From: Candidatus Acetothermia bacterium
GTDB taxonomy: Bacteria > Bipolaricaulota > Bipolaricaulia > RBG-16-55-9 > DRXL01
Direction: 5' to 3'
DNA length: 64,000 bases
Assembly (NCBI GenBank): GCA_016179105.1
Contig: JACOSB010000160.1
Span: 164-64,163 of the forward strand
In this document: piece after piece, positions 13,073-45,665 of the stretch
Layout: each line of letters begins with the position of its first letter
Numbering within the stretch: position 1 is the stretch's first letter
Notes under the pieces: generated by a model
What the model was told of the DNA's origin: nothing
Seen by the model: only the letters and a program-made list of their open reading frames with translations
Database searches by the model: none
Translations under genes and position numbers: made by a program

Positions 13073-13124
13073 CCGCAGAGACGCCCAAAGATTTTCTTGG
13101 CGACCTTGGCGGCTTGGCGGTTCT
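13073..13124 (-). repeat. Family B dispersed repeat, copy 1 (three CGCCAAG heptads then AGAAAATCT...CTCTGCG)
   Basis: Reverse complement is gaaCCGCCAAGcCGCCAAGGtCGCCAAGAAAATCTtTGGgcgtCTCTGCGg. It is about 90% identical to 25616-25667. It lies between the dnaN stop and the ndk start. Confidence 0.7.
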
Positions 13125-13127
13125 GTC

Positions 13128-14258
13128 TCAAAAATCCATACGAATGGGCATGCAGACGTACAGAAAGCCGCGATCGTCTTCGCTGTCGCTCGGCTCGAGC
13201 AGACCGGCGCTCTCGGCATCGGCCAGCCAGAGGGTCACTTCATCAGACTTCACGCGCTTGAGTGCATCGATCAGATACTCGGCTCGGAACGAAATTTTCA
13301 CTTCGCTGATCTTCTTCTTGAGTTCAAGCGTCTCTTGCGCCTCACCCTTCTCGGCCGCTTGCGAGCTAAGCTGCAGCTTCGTGCCCGACGCGTTCAGAAT
13401 CACGGCATCGGACTCTTCGGCCGCTGTAATCTGCGCGCGCTGGAGCGCATTCAAAAAAACTTGGCGATCGAGCAGCAGTCCAATCGTGTTGTCACGTGGG
13501 ACTACTTTATCAAAGTCAGGATACTCTTCATCAATCAGCCGGGCGACAAAAACGACCGGACCCGACTTAAAGAAGAGATAATTGTCGGACTGATATAATT
13601 CTACTTGCTCGGCTTTGAGCTGCGAGAGAATGCTCGCGAGGTCTCGCAGCGAATCGGCAGCAGCGAGAAATTCTCCCTCGACGTTCGCCGCGCTCTCCAA
13701 CTTTTCTTCTTTAAGTGCGAGCCGATAACCGTTCGTCGCGACCATCTTGAGCGAATTTTTCTCTAAGACTAAGTCGACGCCCGTGAGACTCAAACGGGAT
13801 GTGTCGCGCGCCATGTGCGCCGAGAATGTCGTCAATTCCAGGGCACGCTCGAGCTGAGGCTTCGCGAGCTGACAGATGCGTTTACCCGGCAGGGTAGGGA
13901 TTTCGGGATAGTCTTCTTTAGGCAGCATGAAGAGATCGAAGGTCGCGCCGCCGCAGACGATCTCGACTTTGCCGGTGCCCTTGACGATCTTCATCGTCAA
14001 TTTATCGGCGGGAAGGGTGTTAGCGATTTTTGAAAGCAATTCGCCGTTCAGGACGACGACTTCGTCGCCGCCCGAATTCTCGATCGGGACCGAGCACCAG
14101 ATCGCTCGCTCCAAGTCGGTCGCGTACAGATTCAATTGATTGCCTTGAGTTTCTAGCTTGATGCCGGTAAGAATCGGCATGCTGGTGGCACGTCCCAGAG
14201 CACGACCAGCGACCTTGACTCCGAAAACCATCTCATCTCGGCCGCAAGAGAATTCCAT
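13128..14258 (-). CDS. dnaN: DNA polymerase III beta subunit (sliding clamp)
   Basis: 376 aa with ...NQLNLYATDLE..., ...VCMPIRMDF C-terminus and three-domain length. Confidence 0.9.
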   Translation of the reverse strand: MEFSCGRDEMVFGVKVAGRALGRATSMPILTGIKLETQGNQLNLYATDLERAIWCSVPIENSGGDEVVVLNGELLSKIANTLPADKLTMKIVKGTGKVEIVCGGATFDLFMLPKEDYPEIPTLPGKRICQLAKPQLERALELTTFSAHMARDTSRLSLTGVDLVLEKNSLKMVATNGYRLALKEEKLESAANVEGEFLAAADSLRDLASILSQLKAEQVELYQSDNYLFFKSGPVVFVARLIDEEYPDFDKVVPRDNTIGLLLDRQVFLNALQRAQITAAEESDAVILNASGTKLQLSSQAAEKGEAQETLELKKKISEVKISFRAEYLIDALKRVKSDEVTLWLADAESAGLLEPSDSEDDRGFLYVCMPIRMDF

Positions 14259-14874
14259 ACTGTTCCCCCTTTTCGCGAATCTTTTCCATCATCATATTCG
14301 TGAGCTGCTCGACGCTCTGCGTGGCATCTAAGTGCAAGCCGTCTTCATTGAGCTGGGCGATCTGCTCCCAATATGCCGAGCGCACGCGCTGCAAAAATTC
14401 AAGCCCCGCGATCTCCATGCGGTCTCGCTGCCCGCGCTTACGCTGTAACGCTAGCTCTACCGGCAGGTCGAGCAAGACTGTGAGATCGGGCTTGAGCCCG
14501 CCGGTCGCCAACTCATTCAGCGTTTCGATCAGCTCTAAACTCAACCCGCGCCCGTACCCTTGATACGCAACGCTCGACATCGTAAAGCGATCCGCCAGCA
14601 CGATTTTTTTAGATTCGAGCGCCGGCCGGATCACCGTCTGGACCAATTGGTGCCGCGAGGCTTCGAAGAGAAATAATTCAGCCACAGGCTCCAGTTGCAA
14701 CGTCTTGTCGAGTAACGTGTGGCGAATTTTATCCCCCGCGGGTGTTCCTCCTGGCTCCTCGACCGTGACGACATCGTGGCCACATTGTACCAAGTTTTGC
14801 TTCACCCGTCGCATCAGAGTCGACTTGCCGCTGCCGTCAATCCCCTCGAGCGCGACGAAGAGCCCGCGACTCAT
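14233..14874 (-). CDS. tmk: Thymidylate kinase
   Basis: FVALEGIDGSGKST P-loop and the DRF..S motif. It overlaps dnaN by 26 nt. Confidence 0.9.
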   Translation of the reverse strand: MSRGLFVALEGIDGSGKSTLMRRVKQNLVQCGHDVVTVEEPGGTPAGDKIRHTLLDKTLQLEPVAELFLFEASRHQLVQTVIRPALESKKIVLADRFTMSSVAYQGYGRGLSLELIETLNELATGGLKPDLTVLLDLPVELALQRKRGQRDRMEIAGLEFLQRVRSAYWEQIAQLNEDGLHLDATQSVEQLTNMMMEKIREKGEQYGILLRPR

Positions 14875-15371
14875 AGACTGCCCGTGGTCTCGTTGCTGGA
14901 GGCTTCTTGGGGTTCTTCTCGGCGTTTGAGCAAACTTAGAACGACGAGCCCCGTGCCGACCACGATCGCGGTATCCGCCACGTTAAAGACTGGGAAGTTG
15001 AAATGGGGAAGATAGCTGAAGTGCAAAAAATCGATGACATAACCGTAGTGAAACCGATCGATGAGATTCCCGATCGCACCGCCAGCAATCAGAACGAGCC
15101 CGGACTTAAGCGTCCTGTCCTGCACCCGTCCCGAAAAGAGCGCCCCTAGAATACCGATGCTGATGAGCGAAGCGACGAGCGTGATCCAGTTTCCGGCTTC
15201 TTCGTTATTCTGGAAGACGCCGAAGGCTCCTCCGTGATTATGCGCTTGCGTGATCTGAAAAAATCTTCCCCACACTTCGATGGACTCGCCCTGCTCCACC
15301 GATCGTACGATGAAAAATTTGCTAAGTTGGTCAACTAAAGTGACGACGGTAACCCACATTAATCCGTTCAT
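14871..15371 (-). CDS. lspA: Lipoprotein signal peptidase II
   Basis: 166 aa membrane protein with ...FNVADTAIVVG... and NLIDR motifs. It overlaps tmk by 4 nt. Confidence 0.85.
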   Translation of the reverse strand: MNGLMWVTVVTLVDQLSKFFIVRSVEQGESIEVWGRFFQITQAHNHGGAFGVFQNNEEAGNWITLVASLISIGILGALFSGRVQDRTLKSGLVLIAGGAIGNLIDRFHYGYVIDFLHFSYLPHFNFPVFNVADTAIVVGTGLVVLSLLKRREEPQEASSNETTGSL

Positions 15372-15410
15372 AAATATTACGTGCGAGTATAGACAAAAAA
15401 GCTCTTAAAA

Positions 15411-16538
15411 TCAATCGTTTTGGGCTAAAACCGATCGGAGAGCCTGGAATATCTTTTGGTTGTTCACAGAATCTTTGACGGCGGTGCGAATGAATTTCCC
15501 CGAAAAATGAAGGCTTTGCGAGTCGCAGTTGCGAATATGCACCCCCTGCTCGCGCACCTCGCGATACACTTGAGCCGCTGATTTTTTCGAGTGCGCCAAT
15601 TCCATCAAGATAAAATTTGCCACTGAATCATAGACTTTGAGTCCAGCGATCGTGCTCAGCTCTTGACTGAGTTCGCTACGCAGCCGATGCGTCTCTTGCA
15701 CTTTCGCGCGATAGTATTTTTCGTCGCTCAGCGCTTCGACGGCCGCGACTTGTGCGAGCAAACCCACTGCCCAAGGCGGAGAGAACGCCTTCAAGCGTTC
15801 AATAATCTCTTGAGAAGCCGCGAGATAAGCGACTCGTGCTCCGCTCAGCGCATAGAACTTGGACATCGATTTGATAACAATAAGATTATCGTAGCGCGAC
15901 ACCCACGACTCGACCGACGGAGAGGGCGTCACATAATCAACATACGTCTCATCGATAAACAGCAGTGTGTCCGAAGTGATCTCTTCGAGCAAGTTGCGCA
16001 CAAACTCACGCGTGACATATTGACCCGTGGGATTGTTCGGGTTCACCAGAATGATCATATCTGCATCGACGGCATTTGTAATCAGAGACTCAAACGCGAC
16101 ACGGAACGAAGTCTCTTTGGACTGAAAATTTCTCACGGGTTCTACGGGCAAGACGTTCTCCATGATGTGTGTGTACTCGCCGTACATGGGATCGAGCAAA
16201 AGCACACGAGCGCCTTTCGCGAGCAAATTGGGAAACGCGAGATACATCAGGTCCGAAGAGCCGCCGCCGGTGATCAAATTTTCTGGAGGAATCCCGCGCA
16301 CTTGAGAAATCGTTCGGATGAGCCCCTCACTGTAAATCGGGGGACTGGTCCTCACGAGCCAGGGCAGATACTCGGAGAGCTTGGCTGTCACTTTAGGAGA
16401 CGGGTCGTACCAGGCGTCCACTACATCGGCATTGATGATTTGGTTCTTTCGCTCTAGATCAGAAAAATCAGGACCGATATCCTCAAAGAAAGCGCCACCG
16501 TGATAAGCTTGAGCAATTTTCTCTTTTTGTATTTTCAT
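15411..16538 (-). CDS. PLP-dependent class I/II aminotransferase (HisC/CobD family)
   Basis: 375 aa with ...SMSKFYALSGARVAYL... (PLP-lysine motif) and NPNNPTG. Confidence 0.8.
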   Translation of the reverse strand: MKIQKEKIAQAYHGGAFFEDIGPDFSDLERKNQIINADVVDAWYDPSPKVTAKLSEYLPWLVRTSPPIYSEGLIRTISQVRGIPPENLITGGGSSDLMYLAFPNLLAKGARVLLLDPMYGEYTHIMENVLPVEPVRNFQSKETSFRVAFESLITNAVDADMIILVNPNNPTGQYVTREFVRNLLEEITSDTLLFIDETYVDYVTPSPSVESWVSRYDNLIVIKSMSKFYALSGARVAYLAASQEIIERLKAFSPPWAVGLLAQVAAVEALSDEKYYRAKVQETHRLRSELSQELSTIAGLKVYDSVANFILMELAHSKKSAAQVYREVREQGVHIRNCDSQSLHFSGKFIRTAVKDSVNNQKIFQALRSVLAQND

Positions 16539-16713
16539 CTCACACCTCGGCTTGACTCAGTGATAGTAAAAGACTATTTCCCCAGGCTTAAAAGATACTT
16601 AAAACTCGCTGCGAGCGTACGGCATTGGAGGAGGGAAAGTCAAGTGAGGCGTTTTGTGCGATTCTCGAAAAAATCTCGCTCCGAGTGTAATCTTGCAGAC
16701 TCTGAGAGAGTTT

Positions 16714-16828
16714 CAGGGTGAGGGGGGTTACCGACTTCGGGGAGCTTGGGAGGTAGACTGGGTGTGCAACCTCTCAATCCTCCTTGGGCTGCCCGGGGAC
16801 GAACTCACCCTGGGCCGCCTGACTTTTT
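16714..16828 (+). ncRNA. Candidate structured RNA or long terminator-like element. It is closed by a 9-bp helix CAGGGUGAG/CUCACCCUG with a UUCG tetraloop inside and ends in a U-run.
   Basis: Long-range inverted repeat 16714-16722 / 16804-16812 encloses GGGGGGUUACCGACUUCGGGGAGC...GGGCUGCCCGGGG. It is followed by GGCCGCCUGACUUUUU. The 430-nt intergenic region holds no supported CDS. A weak -10 TAATCT sits at 16686. Confidence 0.25.
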
Positions 16829-16974
16829 GGAGACTTTTCATCTTTCGCCTTGGAATCACGGAACGCCCTGAAAGACTACACAGAAAACGCGGAAGAAAGG
16901 CAAGCCGTTTTCCGTGTTTTCAGTGATGTGTTTTCGATTCAGAATCATGCGAACAAAAAGGAAGAAAAAACGGG

Positions 16975-17047
16975 CGGTCCCAACGGGATTTGAACCCGTG
17001 TTTACGCCTTGAGAGAGCGTCGTCCTAGGCCGCTAGACTATGGGACC
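16975..17047 (-). tRNA. tRNA-Glu (anticodon CUC)
   Basis: Cloverleaf: GGTCCCA|TA|GTCT..GGAC|G|ACGCT-CTCTCAA-GGCGT|AAAC|ACGGG-TTCAAAT-CCCGT|TGGGACC|G. U33 and A37 are present. CCA is not encoded. Confidence 0.7.
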
Positions 17048-17140
17048 GGACTGTTTTCAGCGAAAAGATGCTTTAATATAGCAAATGCAGCCCAGAGGGT
17101 CAAGGTGAATCGAGCCAGCAGTTCTTGTTTTTCGTAGCTG

Positions 17141-17167
17141 TTCTTGGCGCTCTTCGCGTCTTGGCGG
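17141..17167 (-). repeat. Family B-related repeat fragment (CCGCCAAGACGCGAAGAGCGCCAAGAA) upstream of the tRNA-Ser promoter
   Basis: Reverse complement matches the 45586-45620 variant GCCAAGGCACGAAGAGCGCCCAGAAAAATCT. Confidence 0.5.
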
Positions 17168-17168
17168 T

Positions 17169-17197
17169 TTGATGAGAGAGAACTCGACTGTTATAAT
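17169..17197 (+). promoter_or_regulatory. Sigma-70-type promoter for tRNA-Ser (TTGATG -17 nt- TATAAT)
   Basis: -35 at 17169-17174, 17-nt spacer, -10 TATAAT at 17192-17197. The tRNA starts 13 nt downstream. Confidence 0.6.
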
Positions 17198-17209
17198 CTC
17201 TTGCCATCG

Positions 17210-17297
17210 GGAGGGATGACCGAACGGTAAGGAACTGGTCTCGAAAACCAGCACGGCCCAAAAGGCCTTCCGGGTTCGAATCCCGGTCCCTCCGCCA
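17210..17297 (+). tRNA. tRNA-Ser (anticodon CGA), with CCA encoded
   Basis: GGAGGGA acceptor. Anticodon stem CTGGT/ACCAG with loop CTCGAAA. Long variable arm CACGGCCCAAAAGGCCTT. T-arm CCGGG-TTCGAAT-CCCGG. 3' GCCA. Confidence 0.85.
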
Positions 17298-17338
17298 AAC
17301 AAAAACATTCCACACCGTTTGAGCTAGCTTTTTTTTGG

Positions 17339-17367: not shown

Positions 17368-17379
17368 ACTCTCACACAT

Positions 17380-18941: not shown

Positions 18942-18976
18942 TTGAAAATGCTTTTAACCGCTTAAAATACGATTTT

Positions 18977-19003
18977 GTAGGGGCGAGGTAACCTCGCCCC
19001 TAC
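18977..19003 (+). repeat. Palindromic element, family A copy 3 (perfect 13-bp palindrome GTAGGGGCGAGGT-A-ACCTCGCCCCTAC)
   Basis: Read directly. It sits between the copC2 stop and the copCD start. Confidence 0.8.
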
Positions 19004-25588: not shown

Positions 25589-25615
25589 GCGCGAGTCAAT
25601 CTAACAACGTCTAAC

Positions 25616-25667
25616 GAAACCGCCAAGTCGCCAAGGACGCCAAGAAAAATCTATGGTTCCTCTGCGC
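25616..25667 (+). repeat. Family B dispersed repeat, copy 2
   Basis: gaaaCCGCCAAGtCGCCAAGGaCGCCAAGAAAAATCTaTGGttcCTCTGCGc lies between the convergent trx-like and pyrF genes. Confidence 0.7.
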
Positions 25668-25685
25668 TCTTTACAGTGAGTTTCG

Positions 25686-31266: not shown

Positions 31267-34200
31267 ATGGCTGACCAATTTGAGAATCCTGACTCACATT
31301 CAAACTCTGATGAGCTGACAGCTCTACGACAGCAGGCCGAGCAATACGCAGCACAATTGCAAATCATCAATAGCATTCAACAAGGGCTTGCAAGCAAACT
31401 GGATATACAAGCCATTTATGATCTGGTTGGCGACAAGGTCTGCGAGATCTTCGATGCCCACGTGGTTCAAATTCTCTCATACGATCCGGCAGCGAATCTC
31501 ATGCATTACCCGTATTGTAATGAAATGGGCGACCGACATTCACACGACCCACGTCTGCCCGGCGGCTTTTCAGGCCACATACTCCAGACGCGCCAACCAC
31601 TCATGATCAACCAGAACCTGGTGGCGCGTTCAGCGGAACTCGGGAAAACCGTACCGTTATCCGGAGACTGGCCTAAATCTTATCTGGGGGTTCCTTTGCT
31701 CGTGGGTGATGAAGTTCGCGGTGTTCTCACTCTCCAAATCTTAGACCGCGAGAACGGCTTCAACGAATCTGACCTGCGCCTGCTTCAGACGCTCGCCAGT
31801 AGCATGAGCATGGCGCTCGAAAACGCGCGTCTCTTTGATGAAGTGCAAAATCGAAATGATGAGATCACTGATGCGTTAGAGCGAGAAACTGCAACGAGCG
31901 ATATTCTCAAAGTGATCGCCAACTCGCCCACCTACATTCAGCCTGTGCTCGATGTGATCGCTGAGCATTCGGCACGGTTATGTGCATCGGACGACGCTGT
32001 CATCGTGCTGGTGGAAGACAACTTTTTGAGGGTGTCCGCCCATTACGGCAGTATCCCCATCACACAAGTGGGTGAAGGGATTCCGTTGGATAAAGAGACT
32101 GTCGTCGGGCGAGCGATCCTGGAGGGTGGAACCTTTCAAACGATCCATGGCCAGAACGAGGCCGCACCCGACTATCCGGCCGGCGACGCAAACGCAAAAA
32201 AATTCGGCTATCGCATGACGTTCTCGACCCCGCTGATGCGGCAAGGCAAGGCAATCGGCGGCATCACCATTCGCCACATCGAACCAAAGCTACTGAGCGA
32301 TAAACAAGTCGAACTGGTCAAGACCTTTGCCGATCAAGCGGCCATTGCTGTCGAGAATGTGCGGCTCTTCAACGAGACCAAAGAAGCACTCGAACAACAG
32401 ACCGCTACGAGCGAAGTGCTCCGTGCCCTGAGTAGCTCTCAAACGGACTTGAAGTCTTTGTTGGAAGTCATTGCCGTGAACGCGGCTAAGGTCTGTGGCG
32501 CCGATGATGCTCACATCTACCGCGTTGAGGGCAACATGCTCAAAGAATGGACACACCGCGGGCCAATTCCAGGGTTAGAGGCGGGCGAATCCTTACCGCT
32601 CAACCGCAAGTCGTTGACGGGCCGCGCGATCGTGGATCGGCAAACTATCCATATCCACGATGCGGCTGCAGAATTGAACGAGGCCGAGTATCCGATCAGT
32701 GCCGCTCTTCAGCGACGATGGGGCACTCGGACGGTGCTATCTATTCCATTGCTCCGCGATGGAGAGCCGATCGGGGGCATTGCCATTCGCCGCAAAGTGG
32801 TGCAACCGTTTACGGAGAAGCAGATTGAGTTGCTCAAATCCTTCGCCGATCAGGCTGTGATTGCGATTGAGAATGTGCGTCTTTTTGATGAGACTCAGCG
32901 TCTGCTCAAAGACACTCAACAACACGCCGCCGAGCTCGCCATTATCAACAGCGTGCAAGAAGGGTTGGCGTCTAAGCTAGATTTCGAGGCAATCATTGAT
33001 CTCGTGGGTGACAAGATTCGTGAAATATTCGATGCGCAGAGCGTGGCCATTGGCAGGTACGATCACGTGAATGGTCTGGTCAACTATAGTTATGTGGTCC
33101 AAAAAGGACACCGAGTGCAATGGAGTCCGTCGCCTTTTGCGGGTATGAGCCATCATATGATTAACACTCGACGGACATTGGTCATCAATGAAAATGTTGC
33201 TCAACGAATGAAAGAAATTGGTGCCATCTTCCCAGATGAGTTTGATCTGCCGCGCTCTACAGTGTATGTACCGCTGCTTGTGGGAGAAACGATCACGGGT
33301 GTGATTAATATCGCTAATCTGGATCGCGAGCACGCCTTTAGCGAATCCGATGTGCGCCTGCTCCAAACGCTCGCCAACAGCATGAGCGTGGCGCTCGAAA
33401 ACGCGAGGCTCTTTAATGAGACTCAACAACGCAACGCCGAGCTTGCCATCCTCAACAGCGTGAGCGAAGCCATGTCGAAGACGCTCGATGTCAAGACCGT
33501 GACGAAGATCGTGGGCGACAAGGTGCAAAGTATCTTTGCCTCAGAAGCCGTGAGCATCCGCTTATATGATCCCGCCACCAACCTCATTCAGCGCGCCTAT
33601 GATTATGACCGCGGTTATGAAGACCTGACTGATACCTCGTTTCCCATGGGCCAAGGGCTGACCTCGAAAATCATCCTTTCCGGCAAGCCGCTCATGTTTG
33701 GCACAGAACAGGAATCATACAGCGCTGGCTCACTGAATGTGCCTTCCCAGAAGGGCGACGAAGCGACGCAATCCTATCTTGGCGTTCCCATTATCGTCAA
33801 TGATAAAGTGATAGGCACCGTTTCCATTCAAAGTTATAAACAACACGCCTATAACGAAAATCACTTGCGCCTCCTGCAAACGCTCTCGTCCAACATGGGC
33901 GTCGCCATCCAGAATGCACGTCTCTTTGAAGCCGAGAAGCAGCGCGCCGCTGAACTTGCGATCATCAACAGTGTGCAAGCAGGACTCGCGTCAAAACTCG
34001 ATATGCAAGCGATTTACGATTTGGTGGGCGACAAGATTCGCGAGATCTTCGACGCACAGGTAGTAACCATTCTCTCTTACGACCACACCAGCAATCTCTT
34101 GCACTTTCGCTACTCGATCGAAAAAGGCGAACGGCAAACCGCTGAACCTTCACCGCTCGGCAAAGGATTTGCCTCCCATATTTTTAGGACACGCGAGCCG

Positions 34201-37200
34201 TTGCTCATCAATCAAGATATTGAAAAGCGGCGCGCTGAATTTGGCGCGGTTGTCCCCATGGGCTCTCCTGCCAAATCCTATCTCGGCGTTCCTTTGATCG
34301 TCGGTGATGAAGCCAAAGCCGTCATCACCTTGCAAAACATTGATCGCGAGAACGCTTTCACCGAATCCGACCTGCGTCTCTTACAGACACTCGCCAACAG
34401 CATGAGCGTCGCCCTCGAAAACGCCCGTCTCTTCGACGAGACTCAGCGCCTGCTCAAAGAGACCGAACAGCGCAACGCGGAACTGGCAGTCATTAACAGT
34501 GTCCAAACTGCGCTCGCCGCTGAACTCAACATGCAAGGCATCTACGACGCGGTAGGCGACAAGATCCGTGAGATATTCAATCAGGCAGATATCAACATCC
34601 GTATCTATGACCCCAAGACAAATCTAGTTCACTATCCATACGCATACGAAAATGGGAAACGCATCGCGATTGATTCGCGCCCGTTACGCGAAACCGGCTT
34701 CAATGCTCATGTCCTCCGCACCCGCGAGACATTGGTCATCAACGAGAACATGGCGCAAGAAATAGTAAAGTATGGCAGCTCCATCATCCTAGGCACACAA
34801 CTGGAAAAATCGGCTATGTATGTGCCGCTCGTGGCAGGCGATCAAGCGCGCGGGTTAATTGAAATCGGCGATTATCAACGCGAACACGTCTTTAGCGAAT
34901 CAGATGTCCGTCTCCTGCAAACCCTCGCCACTGCAATGAGCGTCGCGCTGGAAAACGCACGTCTGTTCGATGAGACTCAGCGCCTGCTCAAAGAGACCGA
35001 ACAGCGCGCTGCCGAACTCGCCATCATCAACAGCGTGCAAGAAGGACTCGCATCAAAGCTCGATATGCAGGCGATTTACGATTTGGTGGGCGACAAGATT
35101 CGCGAGATTTTCGACGCACAAGCGGTAACGATCGCCACCTTTGATCTCGAAAAAGAGATGGGTTATCAGCGCTATAGCATCGAAAAGGGTCAGCGCTTTT
35201 ACTCCGAGCCGGCACGATACGGTAATATTGCCAAGCAACTGATCGCCACTCGCCAGCCCGTGCTTTACCAAACCCGCCAGCAACTCATCGCAACGGGTGT
35301 CGGCGTCGCTCCTGGGACGGAGCCATCCAAGTCCGCCGTGTATGTGCCGCTCGTCGTCGGCGATGTGGTGAAGGGCGCGATAAGTTTGCAAAACGTTGAT
35401 CGCGAGTACGCGTTCACCGAATCGGATGTGCGCCTATTACAAACCTTTGCCAACAGCATGAGCGTCGCCCTCGAAAACGCACGGCTCTTCGACGAGACCC
35501 AGCGCCGAGCGCAGGAAATGTCAGCACTGATCGAAGTAGGTCGTGACATCTCGGCAACGCTCGATCCGACGACAGTCTTGGAACGCATCGCACGTCACGC
35601 ACGCGATCTTTTGCAGGTCAGTGATTGTGCCGTCTTCTTACCCGATGAAACGGGGCAGGCGATGAAGGCCTTCGTCGCGCTTGGACCCATCGCTGCGCAA
35701 ATCAAAGCGATGACGATTCAATTCGGCGCGGGCATTATCGGCAGCATCTGGAAGACGGGAGCCGCCGAAGTCATCAACGATGCGAGCCAAGATCCGCGCG
35801 GCGTAAAGATCGCTGGGACTGAGGATAAATCTGATGAAAAACTGATGGTCGCGCCGTTGTTATCGGGTGATAAAGTGATCGGCTTAATGTCGGTCTGGAG
35901 ATCGGGCGGCGATCGTTTTTTCGAGGACGATCTAATATTCTTGATGGGCTTGGCTCGCCAAGCTACCATCGCCATTCAGAATGCACGTCTCTTCAATGAA
36001 ATCCAGGCGCGCAACCGTGACATCACCGAAGCCTTGGAACAACAAACCGCAACCAGCGAAATCCTGCGCGTCATCGCCAGTTCTCCGACAGACGTGCAAC
36101 CCGTGCTCGAAACGGTTGCGCGGCACGCAGTGAAACTGTGTGATGCGGTATTTTGCGGCGTGTATCGAGTGCAGAACGGAATAGTTTCTCTCGGGGCACA
36201 GTACAATTTGACGCCGGAGGTGGTTGAAGAACTCAACCGCGTACTGCCTGCACCGATCGAGAGCGCACCTAGTATCTCTGCTGAAGCGGTGCGTCGCCAA
36301 ACAATCATTCACATTGCAGACATCGAAAACGAACCCACCGTACCCTCGTGGACGCTTCGAGTCGCGCGGAAGCTAGGGTATAAGAGCATTGTTGCCATCC
36401 CAATGTTGCGGGAGGGTGAGGTCCTCGGTGCCATCACGGTCGCCAGACGCGAAGCAGGGAATTTCACGGATAAACAGATCGCTCTCCTGCAAACCTTCAC
36501 CAATCAAGCGGTCATCGCCATCGAAAATATACGACTATTCAATGAGGTGAAGAACCAGAGACAATTCTTGGAAGCAGTGATCGCCAACAGCCCTGCTGCG
36601 ATTGCGCTCATCGGAAGAGATGCAATAATCAGGGGATGGAATCTGGCTGCTGAAAAATTGTTCGGTTATACCGAAACAGAAGCCCTCGGCCGCAATATTG
36701 ACGATCTGATCGCCTATAGAGAAGAGGTGCGTTTCGAAGCCCTTCACTATACGAATCAAGCCCTCACCGAGAACCGATTCCATATTATCACGAAGCGTGT
36801 CCGTAGAGATGGTAGCTTCGTCGATGTGGAAATATCGGTCTTGCCCATCAACCCTGCCAATCTGAACGAGGGATTTGTTGTTATCTATCACGACATCACC
36901 GAACTCCAGCGCGCGCGCCAAGAAGCGATCGCGGCCAATGAAGCGAAGAGCGCCTTCTTGGCAACGATGAGCCACGAGATTCGCACTCCGATGAACGCCG
37001 TCATCGGAATGAGCGGCCTACTGATGGACACTGATCTCACCCGAGAACAGCACGAGTATGCCGAGACAATCCGCAACTCCAGCGATACGCTTTTAACTAT
37101 CATCAATGATATATTGGACTTCAGCAAGATCGAGGCCGGGAAGATGGAATTGGAGCATCAGCCCTTCGATGTGCGCGAGTGCGTTGAGTCGGCACTGGAC

Positions 37201-38517
37201 TTGGTCGCGGGGCGCGCCGTCGAGCGCGGACTCGATCTGGCGTATCTGATTGATGACGAGGTGCCCAGCGTCGTGCGCGGCGATGTCACGCGCGTGCGTC
37301 AGATTTTGCTCAACTTACTGAGCAACGGAATCAAGTTCACTGATCATGGCGAAGTAGTCGTTGAAGTGAAGCGCGGACAAGCTGCCAATGAGTTGCTCTT
37401 CTCGGTGCGCGATACCGGCATCGGCATCTCACCCGAGGGCATGAAGCGGCTCTTCCAGTCTTTTAGTCAAGCCGACTCGTCGACGACGCGCAAATACGGT
37501 GGTACGGGCTTAGGCTTGGCCATCAGCCGAAAACTTGCGGACATGATGGGCGGTACGATGTGGGCCGAGAGCAAGGGTGTGCCGGGCAAAGGGTCTACTT
37601 TCTTCTTCACGATTAAAGCAGAGGTGGCAAAGTCAATTGTGAGTAAATCGGTGCGCAATCTGAGCAGCCTGCAGCCCGAAGTCGAGGGCAAGCGCATTCT
37701 CATTGTGGACGACAACGCGACCAACGGTCGCATCTTGGAAATACAGACGAAGAAGTGGGGCATGACTCCACGAGTGGCAAAATCGCCCAAGCAAGCGCTC
37801 AAGATTGTGAAGACGAAGAAAAAATTTGATCTGGCAATTTTGGATATGCACATGCCCGAGATGGACGGCATGGCGCTCGCGAAAGCGCTGCGAAAATTGC
37901 CCAGTGCCAAGAAATTGCCTTTGATCTTACTCACGTCGTTGGGGCGTCAAGGAACCAAAGAAAAAGTTTCAGCATTTGCAGCGTATCTCACCAAGCCGGT
38001 CAAGCCCTCACAACTCTTTGATGCGCTGGCGAGCGTTTTTGCTGGCGCGAAAACCAAGCAGCGTAAAGCAACTTTATCAAAGATTAAGACAGCGAAACAA
38101 AAATTCGATCCAAAGATTGCCAAGCGGCATCCTTTGCGGATCTTGCTCGCCGAAGACAACGTCGTCAACCAGAAAGTCGCGCTGCGCATTTTGGATCAGA
38201 TGGGCTATCGTGCCGATGTGGCGTCGAATGGTCTGGAAGCGATCGAAGCCGTCGAGCGTCAGCATTATGATGTGATCTTGATGGACGTGCAGATGCCCGA
38301 AATGGATGGGCTTGAAGCGACGCGGCGCATTGTCGCACGCTGGAGTAAAAAGAAGCGTCCGCACATCGTCGCGATGACGGCAAATGCGATGCAGGGCGAC
38401 CGCGAGATGTGCCTCGCTGCGGGCATGAATGATTACATCACCAAGCCCATTCGAGTCGATGAACTAATCGGCGCTCTGAACAACGTCACTCCCCAAAAGA
38501 GGAGAAATAATTTATGA
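31267..38517 (+). CDS. Giant hybrid sensor histidine kinase with 10 tandem GAF domains, a PAS domain, HisKA, HATPase_c and two receiver domains
   Basis: 2416 aa. Ten GAF units are each bounded by L(E/Q)NARLF(D/N)E(T/V)Q linkers. HisKA: [23 protein letters not shown]. HATPase: [15 protein letters not shown]...[13 protein letters not shown]1: [10 protein letters not shown]...[13 protein letters not shown]2: [10 protein letters not shown]...[11 protein letters not shown]. Confidence 0.9.
31363..35520 (+). repeat. Intragenic array of near-identical ~150-200-nt repeats (GAF linker plus GAF N-terminus) with a ~0.6-kb period
   Basis: gagactcagcgcctgctcaaagagaccgaacagcg...atcatcaacag(c/t)gtgcaag...ctcgatatgcaagcgatttacgatttggtgggcgacaagattcgcgagat recurs at ~32880, 33960, 34440 and 34975 with over 85% identity. 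Confidence 0.8.
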
Positions 38518-41462: not shown

Positions 41463-42501
41463 TTCGTTTCACACTCCTTTGTAACTTACGTTTCCCCACG
41501 TTCTTCGCTCGACCATTTTCTGCTAAACTCATCTTCGCTGGCACAGTTTCTAGAACGTTAGAAAGAGTTGAGCACAGTTCGCCGTTCACATAGAGCTCAA
41601 AAACATCAGGGCGCCCGTAGTGCCCAACTGGATCGAACCGAGATCGTTCTTCATACACTTTTTCGAGATCGATCTCCGCATACAAAATGCTTTCATCGTT
41701 CCACAAGGGGCCAGCCAAGAATTTCCCATTGGGTCCAATGATCGCCGTCGTCCCAAACTGCATCTGTTTGCCCTTGTATTTTTCTAAATCTTTGCGCAGC
41801 TCGAAATCTTTCGGGAGGCTATCAATCTTCAAAATAGGCGAGACTGGGATCACGTACATCCGGTTCTCGAACGCGATGTGCTGCATCGCAGCGAGCCAGT
41901 TTTCGGTGTCGTCAGCCGTCGGTGCAACATAAATCTGAACGCCTTGGGCATAGAGCGCATAGCGCGCTAAGGGCATGAAATTTTCCCAACAGATCAAGCC
42001 ACCGATGCGACCCAGCTCGGTCTCATAAACTTTGAGATCGGTCCCGTCGCCGCGGCCCCAGATCATCCGCTCGTGATAGGTTGGCACGAGTTTTCGATGT
42101 GTACCGAAAATCTCTCCCGCTTTGCCGAAATAGATAATCGTATTGTAGAGAGTACCCGAATGCTTTATATCCCGTTCATTCACACCCATGACCACGATCG
42201 CTTTCGCTTTGCGCGCAGCCTGGCCGAGCGCGCGAGTCTCCGATCCGGGGATCTCGACAGAGTTTTTGTAGAGCCGCGCATAGGCTTTCTTTAACGGAGC
42301 ATATTCATAGCCGCCCGAGCAGAATGCAGTCCAAAACGGGTAGATGGGCAAAAACGCTTCGGGAAAGACAATCAGCTCAGCGCCTTCGTCGGCCGCTGCT
42401 TCGATGAGCTTGATCGCTTTCTCCAGCGATGCATCGAGGTCGAGCAAGACCGGCTCGGCCTGAACTGCAGCGACCTTGTACTTGGGAAACTTTAATGACA
42501 T
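41455..42501 (-). CDS. Carbon-nitrogen hydrolase (nitrilase / aliphatic amidase family)
   Basis: VAAVQAEPV...LIVFPEAF (Glu), ...K... and GGLICWENFMP (Cys) form the catalytic triad of the nitrilase superfamily. Confidence 0.8.
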   Translation of the reverse strand: MSLKFPKYKVAAVQAEPVLLDLDASLEKAIKLIEAAADEGAELIVFPEAFLPIYPFWTAFCSGGYEYAPLKKAYARLYKNSVEIPGSETRALGQAARKAKAIVVMGVNERDIKHSGTLYNTIIYFGKAGEIFGTHRKLVPTYHERMIWGRGDGTDLKVYETELGRIGGLICWENFMPLARYALYAQGVQIYVAPTADDTENWLAAMQHIAFENRMYVIPVSPILKIDSLPKDFELRKDLEKYKGKQMQFGTTAIIGPNGKFLAGPLWNDESILYAEIDLEKVYEERSRFDPVGHYGRPDVFELYVNGELCSTLSNVLETVPAKMSLAENGRAKNVGKRKLQRSVKRNG

Positions 42502-42504
42502 CGC

Positions 42505-42942
42505 TCAGCCTTTGGAGTTGATCTCATATTCATAAGAAATCTTGCTCTTCATCGTGGTGGAGACCGTGCAATATTTTTCGAGCGACAGCTCGATCGCTTT
42601 CTTGAACTTCTCTTCGTCGATCTCCTCACCCCAGATGCGATAGATAATTTTCACAGTATCAATGAATGTTGGGTACTCCGTGGTCTTATGTCCGTCCAAA
42701 TCAATCTCCAAGCGATCGAAGCGCACGCGCTGTTTGGTGAGAATCGAGACGACGTCCATACCCGAGCATGACCCTTGCGCAACCAAGAGCAATTCCGTCG
42801 GGCGCGCTCCCGTGTCGTTTCCATGCCCTTCGACGGATGAATCTATCACGACAGAATGTCCACTGCCGCTGGTGCCGAGAAATTGCATGCCACCGGTGTA
42901 CCTCACGACTGCCGTTGCCATGACGCCTCCTTCGAAATTCAA
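42505..42942 (-). CDS. OsmC/Ohr-family peroxiredoxin-like protein
   Basis: ...ARPTELLLVAQGSCSGMDVVSIL...KYCTVS has the OsmC two-Cys signature. Confidence 0.8.
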   Translation of the reverse strand: MNFEGGVMATAVVRYTGGMQFLGTSGSGHSVVIDSSVEGHGNDTGARPTELLLVAQGSCSGMDVVSILTKQRVRFDRLEIDLDGHKTTEYPTFIDTVKIIYRIWGEEIDEEKFKKAIELSLEKYCTVSTTMKSKISYEYEINSKG

Positions 42943-42990
42943 AACTCGAACTCATTGTAACGAGAGGGTTTAGGGGGAACAACAAATATT

Positions 42991-43018
42991 GTAGGGGCGT
43001 AGCATGCTACGCCCCTAC
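42991..43018 (+). repeat. Palindromic element, family A copy 4 (GTAGGGGCGTAGCATGCTACGCCCCTAC)
   Basis: Perfect 11-bp arms around GCATGC, between the OsmC start region and the lactate-oxidase-like gene stop. Confidence 0.8.
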
Positions 43019-43024
43019 GGCAAA

Positions 43025-44035
43025 TTATCTCGGCAACTTCACCAACGACCGATCGATCTCTTTTACGGTCGGACATCCCGCGAGCGCCATCGCGAGATCG
43101 AATTCATCGCGTAAGAGCTCGATCACACGACGTGCGCCGGCTTCGCCATTGACGGCGAGGCCCCAGAGCACCGGGCGACCGAGCAAGACGGCCCGTGCTC
43201 CCAGTGCGAGCGCTTTCAGAATATCCGTCCCACGACGGATGCCGCCGTCGACATAGACTTCGATCTGATGCGCAACAGCTTCGGCAATCTCGGGAAGCAT
43301 CTCGATCCCCGCCGGGACTGTGTCCAGTTGACGCCCACCGTGATTTGAGACGACGATGCCGGCTGCTCCGTGCTCGACGGCGCGTATCGCATCAGCGGCT
43401 CTATGAATTCCCTTGAGCACCATCGGGAGTTTCGTGATCGAGCGCAGCCAGTCGACATCTTTCCAGTTGAGCGAAGCATCAGGACCCATTTGGCCCGCCG
43501 CACCGCCAGCGCCCAAGAGCATAAAATTATTGCGCACGTCGCGCTCGCGCCGTCCCAGCTCGGGAACATCGACGGTGAGACAGATCGCCTTGAAACCAAC
43601 CTTCTCAGCGCGCTGCACCAATTCCTTGCTCATCTCGCGATCCCTAAAATAGAGCTGAAACCAGAGCGGCCCGGTCGCGGCCGCCGCGACTTCTTCGATC
43701 GTGCTGCTCGCGAGCGTGCTCAAGATCATGATTGTGCCCGTCGCTCCGATAGCCCGCGCGGTCGCGACTTCTCCGTCGGGATGAGCCATCTTTTGTAAAG
43801 CCATCGGTGCGACCATCACAGGAAACGAAATTTTTTGGCCGAGCACGGTGGTCGATGTGTCTCGTTTGCTCACATCGACCAAGACCCTGGGCAAAATCTT
43901 GATGTGATCGAACGCCTGGTGGTTCTCGCGCAGAGTGATTTCGTCATTCGCTCCGCCGGCGAAATAGTCATAGGCGGGTTGAGGGAGTTTCTCCCGCGCC
44001 AACGCTTCGTATTCAAATATATTGCTAGGTTCCAT
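43025..44035 (-). CDS. FMN-dependent alpha-hydroxy-acid dehydrogenase/oxidase (L-lactate or glycolate oxidase family)
   Basis: ...VSNHGGRQLD..., LGRPVLWGLA and the TIM-barrel FMN motifs. Confidence 0.85.
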   Translation of the reverse strand: MEPSNIFEYEALAREKLPQPAYDYFAGGANDEITLRENHQAFDHIKILPRVLVDVSKRDTSTTVLGQKISFPVMVAPMALQKMAHPDGEVATARAIGATGTIMILSTLASSTIEEVAAAATGPLWFQLYFRDREMSKELVQRAEKVGFKAICLTVDVPELGRRERDVRNNFMLLGAGGAAGQMGPDASLNWKDVDWLRSITKLPMVLKGIHRAADAIRAVEHGAAGIVVSNHGGRQLDTVPAGIEMLPEIAEAVAHQIEVYVDGGIRRGTDILKALALGARAVLLGRPVLWGLAVNGEAGARRVIELLRDEFDLAMALAGCPTVKEIDRSLVKLPR

Positions 44036-44147
44036 GCTCCAAGACTAGACGATTTACCCTAGCACAGTCAAGCACTCTGCTGGACACATATTGATTACAC
44101 TTTCGCGTCGGTTCAAGCTATAATCAACTGAAGAAAGCGAGATTTTT

Positions 44148-45575
44148 ATGGCAGAAGCGCCGGAGAGCACTCGAACGCTCCCCAAGAATCGTGAAGCCGA
44201 GCAAGTTGTCCTCGGCGCGTTGATGTTCGAGGCCGAGACCGTCGTCCCGTTGTTACAAGCCAAGCTTTTGCCCGACCAGTTCTACTGGCCCCCGCACCGC
44301 ACGATCTATCACGCGATCCTGGACCTCGCGGAGGCCGCCAAACCCGTCGATTTGATCACCGTCGGGAATAGACTTGAAGAACTGGGAAAGCTCGCAGAAG
44401 TCGGCGGACGCGCCTACTTAAGCGAGATCTATAGCAAAGTCACGACGACGACCAGCGTCGATCATTACGCCGATATCATTCGCAAAAAAGCCGTCTTGCG
44501 CGACCTCATCACTGCCGGTCGCGAGATCGCCGAGCTCGGCTTCGACGAAGAGTTAGAGATGACTCAACTGCTCGACGCCGCTGAAGAAAAACTTTTCCGA
44601 ATCTCCAGACTCGAAGTGCAGCAAAACTATTATTTAATTCGCGATTTCATTCACGAGCATCTGAGCCACCTGGAAAAATTGCAAAGAGACGCCTCGCAGC
44701 ACACCGTCACAGGCCATGCGACGGGTTATCAAAAGTTCGATGAGTTGACTTCGGGTCTACAGCCTTCTGACTTGGTCGTCATCGCCGCACGCCCGAGCGT
44801 CGGTAAGACGTCGTTGGCTTTGAGCGTGACTCGCCAGATGGCGCTGCACTATAACAAATGCGTCGGCATCTTCAGTTTGGAGATGACCAAGGAGCAAGTT
44901 TTGGAGCGCTTGCTCTGCGCCGAAGCGCGCATCAACTTACACCGCCTGCGCGGCGGCTATCTGCAAACAGATAGTAAAGCGTGGAGTCAAATTATCAATG
45001 CTGCCGGTAAACTCCAGAACAGCAAAATCATTATTGACGACACGCCAGCGATCTCGATCACCGAATTGAAAGCCAAAGCCCGACGCATGAAGACCGAGCA
45101 CCATCTCGACGCACTCTTCGTTGACTATTTGCAGCTCGTCGAAGCAGTGGGTCGCAGCGATGTGCGCGAACAAGAAGTTGCGTACATCGTGCGCTCGCTC
45201 AAGGGCTTGGCACGCGAGTTGGGTGTCCCGGTGGTGACTCTCTCGCAGCTCTCGCGTGCGCCGGAGCGTGGTGAGGGTCGCGAACCGAGATTATCTGATT
45301 TGCGTGAGAGCGGTGAGATCGAACAGGCTGCTGACGTCGTGATATTCATTCATCGGGAAGAACCCAGAAAAGACAAAGAGGAATCATCTCCAGAAGTTAT
45401 GGAAGACAGAGCGGAGCAGCAAGATTCCTTGAGCGAAGATCTTAAGATCATCATCGGCAAACAACGCAACGGTCCCGCGGCAGTTTCGTTCATCTTGCGA
45501 TTTCTTCGCTCATACGCCAGCTTCGAGGAACCCACGTATCAACCCTTCTCTGCCCGCGACGAGGCACCGTTTTAA
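44148..45575 (+). CDS. dnaB: Replicative DNA helicase DnaB
   Basis: 475 aa with ...AARPSVGKTSLAL (Walker A), ...LFVDYLQL... and SQLSRAPE. No intein is present. Confidence 0.9.
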   Translation: MAEAPESTRTLPKNREAEQVVLGALMFEAETVVPLLQAKLLPDQFYWPPHRTIYHAILDLAEAAKPVDLITVGNRLEELGKLAEVGGRAYLSEIYSKVTTTTSVDHYADIIRKKAVLRDLITAGREIAELGFDEELEMTQLLDAAEEKLFRISRLEVQQNYYLIRDFIHEHLSHLEKLQRDASQHTVTGHATGYQKFDELTSGLQPSDLVVIAARPSVGKTSLALSVTRQMALHYNKCVGIFSLEMTKEQVLERLLCAEARINLHRLRGGYLQTDSKAWSQIINAAGKLQNSKIIIDDTPAISITELKAKARRMKTEHHLDALFVDYLQLVEAVGRSDVREQEVAYIVRSLKGLARELGVPVVTLSQLSRAPERGEGREPRLSDLRESGEIEQAADVVIFIHREEPRKDKEESSPEVMEDRAEQQDSLSEDLKIIIGKQRNGPAAVSFILRFLRSYASFEEPTYQPFSARDEAPF

Positions 45576-45585
45576 CATTTGAACT

Positions 45586-45620
45586 GCCAAGGCACGAAGA
45601 GCGCCCAGAAAAATCTCTCA
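45586..45620 (+). repeat. Family B-related repeat variant (GCCAAGGCACGAAGAGCGCCCAGAAAAATCT)
   Basis: It faces an inverted family B copy at 45631-45665, so the pair forms an imperfect large palindrome between the convergent dnaB and oxidoreductase genes. Confidence 0.55.
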
Positions 45621-45630
45621 AGTTCTTCTT

Positions 45631-45665
45631 AGCGTCCTTGGCGTCTTGGCGGTTAATTTTCAACC
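45631..45665 (-). repeat. Family B dispersed repeat, copy 3, inverted
   Basis: Reverse complement aaaattaaCCGCCAAGaCGCCAAGGaCGCtAAGAAgAA. Confidence 0.6.

Follow-up and report, generated by a model that had tools for sequence, protein, structure and literature searches.

Heptad repeats between genes of an Acetothermia bacterium as probable gene-less derivatives of the inverted ends of GxxExxY cassettes

Introduction

What is the short repeat, built of CGCCAAG heptads, that lies scattered between the genes of a Candidatus Acetothermia bacterium? The question arises from a 64,000-nt stretch of contig JACOSB010000160.1 (the window), for which an earlier note had described a dispersed repeat, family B, with at least five copies in both orientations and no named bacterial repeat class, and had read the heptads as protein-binding iterons. 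All five copies are present. No class could be named here either, as Rfam returned nothing real, a GTAG or CGTC tag is missing, and the heptad strings do not appear in the searchable literature.

Results

Repeat copies in the window

Five arms at four sites of the window share AACCGCCAAG-N-CGCCAAG-NN-CGCCAAG (Table 1). Every site given earlier holds a copy, with small corrections to boundaries such as those of C, D and E, and the gene contexts named earlier (dnaN-ndk, a tRNA promoter and two convergent junctions) were found as described. The window has 28 occurrences of CGCCAAG where 12.1 +/- 3.7 would be expected, a count reached in 0 of 100 shuffles. Three or more identical heptads no further than 4 nt apart were found in the window only at A and B, to which a two-unit pattern adds C and E. 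Compared with the module described below, A, B and E show at most one mismatch. A and B are alike in both loop and arms, and their identity is 80% over 49 nt without gaps, lower than the ~90% over 50 nt claimed before.

Table 1. Positions of the repeat copies and of the composite element in the window
Feature	Position	Strand	Description
Copy A	13073-13122	-	50-nt gene-less hairpin element, dnaN-ndk junction
Copy B	25618-25666	+	49-nt gene-less hairpin element, converging AhpC-like gene / pyrF
Copy C	17141-17169	-	Solo arm, reads AACCGCCAAGACGCGAAGAGCGCCAAGAA
Copy D	45582-45610	+	Left arm of D/E element
Copy E	45626-45654	-	Right arm of D/E element
D/E element	45582-45654		73-nt palindromic element, dnaB / FAD oxidoreductase gene (converging)

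Copy A is flanked by the stop of dnaN (13128) and the start of ndk (13019), and probably falls within one dnaN-ndk transcription unit. Three CGCCAAG units make up its left arm, from 13122 down to 13096, followed by the loop AAAATC and a decayed right arm, TTTGGGCGTCTCTGCGG. Copy B, between the ends of the AhpC-like gene (25588) and pyrF (25686), also carries three CGCCAAG units. Its loop reads AAAAATCT, and CCTCTGCG closes the decayed right arm; an outer stem, CGAAAC/GTTTCG, extends its structure to about 25615-25685. The solo arm C has no inverted partner and occupies the divergent spacer of tRNA-Glu (-) and tRNA-Ser (+), where it ends directly at TTGATG, the -35 box of the tRNA-Ser promoter. 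The D/E element, between the stops of dnaB (45575) and the FAD oxidoreductase gene (45660), combines a degenerate left arm, AACTGCCAAGGCACGAAGAGCGCCCAG, with a right arm that is a well-kept module on the minus strand, from 45654 down to 45628. The window also contains separate palindromes with a GTAG tag.

The earlier proposal that D and E form one imperfect palindrome was borne out by folding, with -33.0 kcal/mol (z = -4.6) on the plus strand and -32.6 kcal/mol (z = -3.7) on the minus strand for the 73 nt. Copy B folds into an imperfect hairpin at -22.7 kcal/mol (z = -3.7), as does copy A at z = -1.0, the right arm being decayed in both. No fold was found for copy C, and a single module (-0.5 kcal/mol) folded no better than shuffles.

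The module across genomes and strains

The scan for further copies covered one genome per species. At least 120 stretches, labelled with about ten phyla, matched the module, mostly at intergenic positions; the case that would have refuted the earlier note, with no copies beyond its own and one local duplication, does not hold. The part common to 146 copies in 120 stretches is only ~31 nt long and sharp-edged, with the consensus (A/T)TG followed directly by AACCGCCAAG(A)CGCCAAGG(A)CGCCAAG(A)(A). Although the search pattern did not include the third heptad, its consensus base occurs in 76-87% of copies at each of the seven positions. Most copies read TTG, ATG or GTG at positions -3 to -1, and paired elements are purine-rich at positions -12 to -5. 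One or two variable bases stand between successive heptads, so that the period is 8-9.

An inverted, head-in partner lies downstream of 95 of the 147 modules (65%), for a total length of 57-317 nt, while only 3 modules show the opposite arrangement. In 29 of 36 pairs, where 16 would be expected, the variable base between heptads 1 and 2 was complementary across the arms. Around more than 100 unrelated intergenic module sites (120 loci) no neighbouring gene recurred, nor was a RAYT (Y1 transposase) gene recurrent among the genes adjoining the 120 loci; module orientation relative to genes showed no bias. No target-site duplication was enriched in 78 paired elements at offsets of 0-12 nt from the module edges and k = 3-5, the one weak direct-repeat signal amounting to 4 cases at offset 9 and k = 4. 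The hairpin forms the core of a larger, CTAG-bounded repeat of ~150 bp in Sorangium, and in Chloroflexia the palindrome reaches beyond the module, so the spreading unit can have outer ends other than the module.

The copies are unstable among close strains. In strain L001 (99.2% identical), copy A is shorter by one 8-nt unit and has 6 substitutions besides, and copy C is unchanged. Strain L134 has the same outer edges at the copy A site around a different interior, which makes a different palindrome. Conservation in related genomes, which the earlier note had raised, did not extend to the orthologous spacers of the 88%-identical relative L135: no element was found at its copy A site, and in its tRNA spacer the copy C stretch is diverged and the module absent, with both promoters conserved. 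D/E is unchanged in L169, which is another assembly from this population.

These observations bear on the iteron reading, in which the heptads would be a binding array for a regulatory or replication protein at dnaN, dnaB and the tRNA promoter. The 7-nt direct repeats recur every 8-9 nt, a spacing that ribbon-helix-helix repressors (MetJ and omega among them) also use, two copies adjoin replication genes, and copy C touches a promoter box. However, an identical module stands in at least 120 unrelated contexts of many phyla with no shared neighbour and no orientation bias towards genes, near-identical strains differ in unit number, the 88% relative has no module at the dnaN and tRNA sites although its promoters are conserved, GC skew gave no origin in the window, and the full-length form is coding sequence. 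An array of this kind is therefore very improbable. The iteron reading is not supported. In its full-length form, the 31-nt module begins the coding sequence of a small nuclease gene and also flanks that gene on the 3' side.

Cassettes carrying the GxxExxY gene

The module makes up the ends of a gene cassette. In full-length versions of ~430-500 bp, a GxxExxY gene starts within it: the module supplies an ATG, TTG or GTG start and the codons that follow (together MNRQDAKDAK). The left repeat AAC CGC CAA GAC GCC AAG GAC GCC AAG encodes NRQDAKDAK and also includes the ribosome-binding region, and an inverted module copy follows 0-15 nt past the stop. Module start and inverted 3' copy were present in five of five distinct genes examined in this GxxExxY clade. 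In Sorangium (L023), TGAACCGCCAAGACGCCAAGGACGCCAAGG opens a 142-aa ORF, which matches the profiles PF13366 (E = 8e-42) and TIGR04256 (E = 2.9e-41), and ACTTGGCGTCTTGGCGTCTTGGCGTCTTGGCGGTTCC follows its stop. The four other genes (L170, L171/L172/L173, L174 and L175) were retrieved via protein identity, independently of the repeat. Among the 120 closest GxxExxY homologues, 102 start with N[RH]Q..DAK, and in ten proteins the frame continues into ..LGVLAV, ..WRLGG or ..LRLCG, the translation of the inverted module. A heptad-type N-terminus was found in the called protein of ~16% of 149 diverse family representatives; the link may be confined to part of the GxxExxY family, or many gene calls may start past the module.

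Cassette lineages differ in their heptad (CGCCAAG, CGCAGAG, CGCCGAT and others), and both ends of one cassette match. Ends of the CGCCGAT type were found in L074. The L176 gene is opened by ATG CAC CGC AGA GGC GCA GAG and has CTCTGCGTCTCTGCGGTGA past its stop, which is matched by the right end of copy A; the end of this decayed arm resembles the 3' terminus of a CGCAGAG-type cassette. A truncated-gene intermediate is provided by L085, in which a module, a 45-residue N-terminal GxxExxY fragment and an inverted module occupy 212 nt in total. The 78 paired elements of the sampled loci held a whole gene in 1 and a gene fragment in 1. In the window the interiors between arms measure 6-17 nt, and hmmsearch of the six-frame translation found no PF13366-like segment that would represent a GxxExxY gene; the window copies are therefore read as gene-less derivatives. 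Of this genome, the analysis covered the window and overlapping contigs.

The cassette protein has ~140 residues and belongs to Pfam PF13366 (PDDEXK_3) and NCBIfam TIGR04256. The catalytic D..ExK residues D84, E94 and K96 were invariant in 18 sequences. In the structural model (pLDDT 88), residues 1-13, which the module encodes, are disordered, and the best fold matches were lambda exonuclease and Cas4. GxxExxY is thus a putative PD-(D/E)XK nuclease with a predicted Cas4 / lambda-exonuclease fold. The family is on record (PMC3424549) without an assigned function and with the remark "multiple transfers, mixed clades", which matches the spread of the repeat.

The order of events could also be the reverse. 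The hairpin, selfish or structural, would then be primary and the GxxExxY gene would have homed into its loops later, much as homing-endonuclease genes enter intron loops, leaving the window copies as empty target sites. Loops do hold foreign inserts: in L130 a CGCAGAG-type hairpin is nested within a CGCCAAG-type hairpin, a Chloroflexia element encloses an unrelated perfect hairpin together with a CGCAGAG module, and L134 carries its palindrome of another kind within the copy A edges. The Sorangium repeat with the hairpin at its centre and the vast excess of gene-less over gene-bearing copies also agree with a later gene. We nevertheless consider this order unlikely. The module provides the start codon and first codons in full cassettes, and the 5' and 3' heptad type co-varies with gene lineage, both of which fit ends and gene evolving together as one unit, while the truncated gene of L085 is expected from deletion decay and not from fresh invasion.

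Position at gene 3' ends

Of the four window sites, three adjoin the 3' end of a gene, and at two of the three the genes converge. These positions would be explained if the host kept the hairpins as transcript 3'-end structures, either bidirectional terminators or mRNA stem-loops. On the plus strand, the right arm of D/E is followed by a U-rich tail, AAUUUUCAA, which is weak as a U-tract. Family-wide, at least 5 T in 8 nt occur on ~25% of hairpin sides against 4.8% at random positions, and T frequency is 0.42-0.49 at positions +5 to +11 past the right arm.

Retention for this purpose is nonetheless improbable. Of 74 hairpins, 33 are flanked by a T-tract on one or both sides and 41 on neither, and a simple terminator scan of the window called no element copy, D/E included. 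The flanks are purine-rich on the left and T-rich on the right because they are the cassette ribosome-binding region and its inverted copy. Reading of the sequence gave no U-tract at copy A, which sits inside its probable transcription unit. The copies decay fast and are missing in a relative, and neither solo arms nor the sense-strand modules just 5' of start codons on a viral contig can terminate.

If the window copies are gene-less derivatives of a cassette, any effect of these non-coding sequences is incidental. They give transcripts a stable stem-loop at the 3' ends of genes, and D/E may help in terminating dnaB.

Discussion

The most probable reading is that family B represents the inverted ends of a tiny, mobile, horizontally spread GxxExxY cassette from which the gene has been lost, that is, miniature, non-autonomous and decaying derivatives. 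We infer a direction from full cassettes to hairpins by deletion. An interior deletion would join both cassette repeats into a 50-75-nt hairpin such as A, B and D/E, and loss of one arm would leave a solo module, as in C. The miniatures would multiply as gene-less units and then decay by slippage of the 8-9-nt units and by point mutation. Mobility would come from the GxxExxY nuclease acting in trans, perhaps by cutting a hairpin or cruciform of the ends; the protein could instead be cargo and not the mobility enzyme.

Several known systems resemble these elements in part. As in MITEs, the copies are non-coding, intergenic, multi-copy units of 50-320 nt, a longer partner that carries a gene has the same terminal inverted repeats, and truncated-gene intermediates exist. 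In contrast to MITEs, target-site duplication was not found, the partner of ~430-500 bp encodes a 140-residue PD-(D/E)XK protein that is not a recognised transposase type, and the inverted repeat is made of heptad units and includes the gene start codon. Cyanobacterial SDR elements are reportedly mobile-looking repeats of 21-27 nt common to distant cyanobacteria; they are said to be nested in longer, hairpin-forming host repeats, to be restricted to cyanobacteria and to have no associated gene. Going by description only, the present repeat is likewise very short, mobile-looking, cross-lineage and nested, but differs in its linked gene and its spread beyond cyanobacteria. Plasmid iterons and heptad operators, such as the omega repressor sites of pSM19035, are also short tandem direct repeats, found at one locus beside the gene that is controlled, whereas the present units are dispersed across phyla as hairpin-forming inverted pairs.

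REPINs are inverted REP doublets mobilised by a single-copy HUH tyrosine transposase, the RAYT (PMC3116915, PMC3733652). The present elements share with them the hairpin-forming inverted doublets, the missing target duplication, repeats far in excess of the protein gene, singlets as decay products and families across phyla. However, a REP unit is an imperfect palindrome of 20-40 nt with a GTAG or CGTC tag at one end (PMC3733652), whereas the single module is non-palindromic, has neither tag, and has ends reading (T/A)TGAACC...GGTTCA. The protein associated with the present repeat is also a putative PD-(D/E)XK nuclease, unlike the Y1/HUH enzyme of REPINs, and the repeats overlap the coding start of its gene. 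TAACTGA heptamers, intergenic tandem repeats found in Beggiatoaceae, Cyanobacteria and Bacteroidetes, show no obvious route of transfer; they follow one another without gaps (period 7), are direct in nearly every case and stand just 5' of start codons (MacGregor 2015, PMC4679880). While both are intergenic tandem heptamers across phyla, TAACTGA repeats and cyanobacterial STRRs run head-to-tail with a period of exactly 7, against 8-9 here, and TAACTGA repeats are set apart from the present ones by the inverted pairs and linked gene of the latter.

The GxxExxY cassettes have the same module as the window copies, placed at the 5' end and in the inverted 3' flank, and the window copies are gene-less. 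The searchable literature gave no account of a link between the repeat and GxxExxY, of flanking heptad repeats or of gene-less derivatives. The link between repeat and cassette provides a first testable clue to the role of the very large GxxExxY family.

Repeat copies in the window

All five copies of the CGCCAAG repeat (family B) that the earlier note had claimed were recovered in the window, in the gene settings stated there. They share the core AACCGCCAAG-N-CGCCAAG-NN-CGCCAAG, followed by AAGAAAAATCT. The heptad CGCCAAG occurs 28 times in the window against an expectation of 12.1 ± 3.7, a count reached in 0 of 100 shuffles, and arrays of three identical heptads were present at copies A and B and nowhere else in the window. 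These two copies are 80% identical over 49 nt, loop included. Copies D and E form one imperfect palindrome of 73 nt (-33 kcal/mol, z = -4.6), as had been proposed. Copy B folds well (z = -3.7), the fold of copy A is weak, and no fold was found for copy C.

Copies of the CGCCAAG repeat in the window and their gene settings
Copy	Position	Strand	Setting
A	13073-13122	minus	between the dnaN stop and the ndk start
B	25618-25666	plus	between a converging AhpC-like gene and pyrF
C	17141-17169	minus	spacer of divergent tRNA-Glu and tRNA-Ser; touches the -35 box of the tRNA-Ser promoter
D	45582-45610	plus	faces E; between converging dnaB and FAD oxidoreductase gene
E	45626-45654	minus	faces D; between converging dnaB and FAD oxidoreductase gene

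Differences were evident between close relatives. In stretch L001, which over 11.7 kb shares 99.2% identity with the window, copy A is missing exactly one 8-nt unit and carries six further substitutions in its right arm. In L134 (DnaN 98% identical) the outer edges of copy A are kept and the interior is exchanged for a longer stretch with another palindrome. L135, with a DnaN of 88% identity and identical tRNAs, has no element after dnaN, and in its tRNA spacer both promoters are conserved and the stretch corresponding to copy C has diverged. The copies are thus unstable and not conserved among relatives, which argues against a locus-specific regulatory role.

At gathering thresholds, Rfam identified only three tRNAs in the window. 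At permissive E-values the hairpins matched eukaryotic miRNA-precursor models only, below the cut-offs (56 bits against 87 for mir-5881), and these matches were rejected as generic to long perfect stems. Such matches to mir-5881 (up to 56 bits) and other precursor models lie at 45574-45660 of the window and, in other stretches, at L020:5374-5456 and L035:1599-1693; they could give false miRNA calls in contaminated assemblies. Resemblances of the repeat to ECF-sigma and sigma-54 promoters, integron attC sites, Chi, rut and DNA-uptake sequences were considered and dropped, as neither spacing nor distribution fits.

Other repeats occur in the window. Four palindromes GTAGGGGC...GCCCCTAC (10479-10532, 11099-11157, 18977-19003 and 42991-43018) contain as inverted pairs all eight exact GTAGGGGC matches of the window. 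They look like GTAG-tagged REP elements of a family separate from the CGCCAAG repeat, and are probably the "family A" of the earlier note. An ORF of 2416 aa (31267-38517) has internal DNA repeats of about 510-530 nt with 60-89% identity, each unit closing with a conserved ...ALENARLF motif; by its appearance it may be a tandem series of GAF-type sensor domains. The starts of three paralogous genes (ATGAAGTTCATCAAGCAGAACCCCGGCCTGCTGAGG...; 767-857, 4268-4358 and 6187-6277) are 64-88% identical. They open large ORFs rich in repeats, which may encode a small family of surface or secreted proteins.

Distribution of the module across phyla

Further copies beyond the window were sought by scanning one genome per species for AACCGCCAAGNCGCCAAGG, which has 18 fixed bases and about 17 expected chance matches in 596 Gb, and matches were obtained in at least 120 genome stretches. 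Among the matches listed, closed or isolate genomes were those of Sorangium (many), Scytonema, Oscillatoria, Nostoc, Tolypothrix, Nodularia and Botrimarina, and metagenome-assembled genomes (MAGs) were labelled as Chloroflexota, Planctomycetota, Verrucomicrobiota, Lentisphaerae, alpha-, beta- and gammaproteobacteria, Acidobacteriota, Armatimonadetes, Methylomirabilota and others. Identity of the repeat over about 30 nt spans genomes labelled Myxococcota, Cyanobacteriota, Planctomycetota, Chloroflexota, Verrucomicrobiota, Pseudomonadota, Acidobacteriota and Candidatus Acetothermia, among others.

Alignment of 146 copies from the matches listed revealed only about 31 nt in common, with sharp edges and the consensus (A/T)TG, then AACCGCCAAG(A)CGCCAAGG(A)CGCCAAG(A)(A). 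Although the third heptad had not been searched for, every one of its positions agrees with the consensus in 76-87% of the 146 copies, so the matches are homologous and not due to chance. Among the matches listed, 31% of module copies lie inside long ORFs compared with 79% of random positions, and no strand or orientation bias relative to neighbouring genes was found. Sister modules of the same grammar are built of the heptads CGCAGAG, CGCAAAG, CACAGAG, CGCGGAG, CGCAAGG, CGCAGAT and CACGAAT; they share loci with the CGCCAAG type and are sometimes tandem to it or nested within it.

No match to the module was found in cultured phages, one Nostoc plasmid carries it at four places, and it is present in 11 stretches of viral contigs. 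The IMG/VR contig L132 (65% G+C) has sense-strand modules at 1042, 3077, 3593 and 5976 between co-directional genes. At least two of the four are followed by a second module of the CGCGGAG/CGCAGAG type, and two stop directly upstream of a ribosome-binding site and ATG. None of the four has an inverted partner, so hairpins and terminators are ruled out at these sites. In Scytonema sp. HK-05 (L040:7529), a cyanobacterial MAG (L044:685) and Nodularia chucula (L079:4573), the module lies in frame within a protein of about 1230 aa (...YFGNEPPSRQGRQEEE...). The coding sequence on either side is conserved in the three, which suggests an old insertion that has been accepted into the reading frame. A Dehalococcoidia MAG has three tandem units at L015:1386-1700, spaced by 144 and 115 nt, each consisting of a CGCCAAG module and a parS-like TGTTTCACGTGA sequence.

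Pairing of modules into gene-less elements

A module alone is unstructured. An inverted partner, always head-in, follows downstream of 95 of 147 modules among the matches listed (65%), giving elements of 57-317 nt, and the opposite arrangement occurred in three cases. The variable base between heptads 1 and 2 is complementary across the arms in 29 of 36 pairs, compared with 16 expected. Element interiors are variable and sometimes contain other palindromes. No target-site duplication flanked the elements at any offset tested. All-against-all clustering of 2,840 ORFs from 120 listed loci disclosed no gene family recurring beside the repeats; the clusters were kinases, ABC ATPases and similar large families only.

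The Sorangium hairpin forms the centre of a dispersed repeat of about 150 bp with a sharp CTAG at both boundaries and a loop that is flipped between copies. Loci of this repeat include L017, L020, L051, L063, L073, L090 and L103; it has imperfect outer inverted repeats, and some copies have CGCAAAG units in place of CGCCAAG.

Association with GxxExxY genes

The link to a gene came from a search for inverted module pairs 400-4000 nt apart. In Sorangium stretch L023, a 460-nt inverted pair encloses an ORF of 142 aa that matches Pfam PF13366 PDDEXK_3 (E = 8e-42) and NCBIfam TIGR04256 "GxxExxY protein" (E = 2.9e-41). Its ATG coincides with the "TG" of the consensus, codons 2-10 (NRQDAKDAK) come from the module, and the inverted module begins three bases past the stop. 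Among the 120 closest homologues, drawn from many sources at 64% identity or more, 102 have an N[RH]Q..DAK start, and in ten proteins the C-terminus reads through into LGVLAV, WRLGG or LRLCG, which is the inverted module translated. Four further genes were picked solely for the identity of their proteins: one from a Planctomycetota MAG, one for a Blastocatellia-type protein and two on metagenome contigs. In the DNA of all four, the module stands at the start and its inverted copy 0-15 nt past the stop. Other heptad types are arranged alike: a Planctomycetota gene has CGCCGAT-type ends, and a cassette opening with ATG CAC CGC AGA GGC GCA GAG (MHRRGAE..) has CTCTGCGTCTCTGCGGTGA after the stop. 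Stretch L085 is an intermediate of 212 nt overall, in which module and inverted module enclose a 45-residue GxxExxY N-terminus.

With the module as the 5' end of a gene in full cassettes, two features of the consensus are explained, TTG/ATG/GTG as a start codon and the purine-rich part as a ribosome-binding region. The reading of the heptads as protein-binding iterons in the earlier note was not supported, the module being dispersed over many phyla, unstable, absent in a relative and, in full-length form, the coding end of a gene. Some copies may act as terminators. T-tracts are enriched 5-fold at the sides of hairpins; however, 41 of 74 hairpins are without a T-tract, a terminator scan called none of the window copies, and the T-rich right flank is explained as the inverted copy of the ribosome-binding region.

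When the transcript of a full cassette was folded in silico, pairing was predicted between its 5' module, which includes the start codon, and its 3' module; this would hide the start site. Fold-back inhibition is known for some insertion sequences, and the cassette would be similar to them in this respect. One identical GxxExxY protein (P0115; L171, L172 and L173) occurs on nine contigs. Two different left flanks lead into a single right flank, which could reflect recent rearrangement or movement at the 5' end of the cassette, or else differences between strains or assemblies.

The protein family is large, with 32,812 clusters at 50% identity (E <= 0.001, search of 1.84 billion representatives), and about one-sixth of the 149 best representatives have a heptad-type N-terminus of some kind. 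Invariant residues are D84, E94 and K96 in addition to G-x-x-E-x-x-Y. The AlphaFold model (pLDDT 88) has disordered module-encoded residues 1-13, and its nearest solved folds, at weak scores, are lambda exonuclease and Cas4; no solved relatives were found by sequence. PADLOC returned a weak Cas4b match only, PHROGs no family match, and a protein-pattern scan of viral contigs none of this GxxExxY clade. PF13366 has been described as of unknown function, present in prokaryotes and viruses and transferred multiple times between divisions (PMC3424549), and no published annotation beyond this was found.

Origin of the window copies

The window holds no GxxExxY gene, and its copies have no start codon at positions -3 to -1 and are, as read from their sequence, non-coding. 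Copies A, B and D/E are probably gene-less miniatures of the GxxExxY cassette, and copy C a solo end. Since the right end of copy A, GTCTCTGCGGTGAG, matches the 3' terminus of CGCAGAG-type cassettes, this copy is by its sequence a chimera of two heptad types. Because A and B share both arms and loop, the miniatures would multiply as gene-less units, and copies would decay by unit slippage and substitution. No known transposase linked to the elements was found; the favoured guess has the GxxExxY nuclease working in trans, on a hairpin or cruciform that the ends would form. In the chief rival reading the order is reversed, with the hairpin coming first and the gene invading its loop. A more far-reaching reading, less likely than not, is that GxxExxY proteins are nucleases of an unrecognised class of very small mobile elements. 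Such an element would be a cassette of about 430-500 bp whose heptad-built inverted ends form a hairpin or cruciform cut by the nuclease with no target duplication; it would spawn gene-less hairpin miniatures and have spread to about ten phyla of bacteria and to some viruses.

Relation to known repeats and implications

As to kind, the repeat would fall among the gene-less derivatives of small mobile units. The small dispersed repeats reported for cyanobacteria by Elhai et al. 2008 are among its closest parallels. MITEs are likewise gene-less miniatures, but here no target duplication was found and the partner protein is not a recognised transposase. REPINs are also alike (PMC3116915), whereas here the units are not palindromic, carry no tag and belong with a different protein. 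The TAACTGA heptamers, common to several phyla, are among the closest published parallels (PMC4679880). The searchable literature yielded no account of GxxExxY genes with heptad ends, nor of gene-less miniatures derived from them, and exact heptad-array strings returned nothing relevant; AACCGCCAAG alone matches the Widom 601 nucleosome sequence.

A non-coding repeat of many phyla is now tied to a specific, very large and uncharacterised gene family. For annotation, starts of the MNRQDAKDAK type and tails of the LGVLAV type should be read as translated repeat DNA. If the cassette model is true, it would account for the patchy, multi-copy distribution of the family, the odd low-complexity N-termini and read-through C-termini of many members, and the origin of a class of long perfect intergenic hairpins together with their accidental matches to miRNA models.
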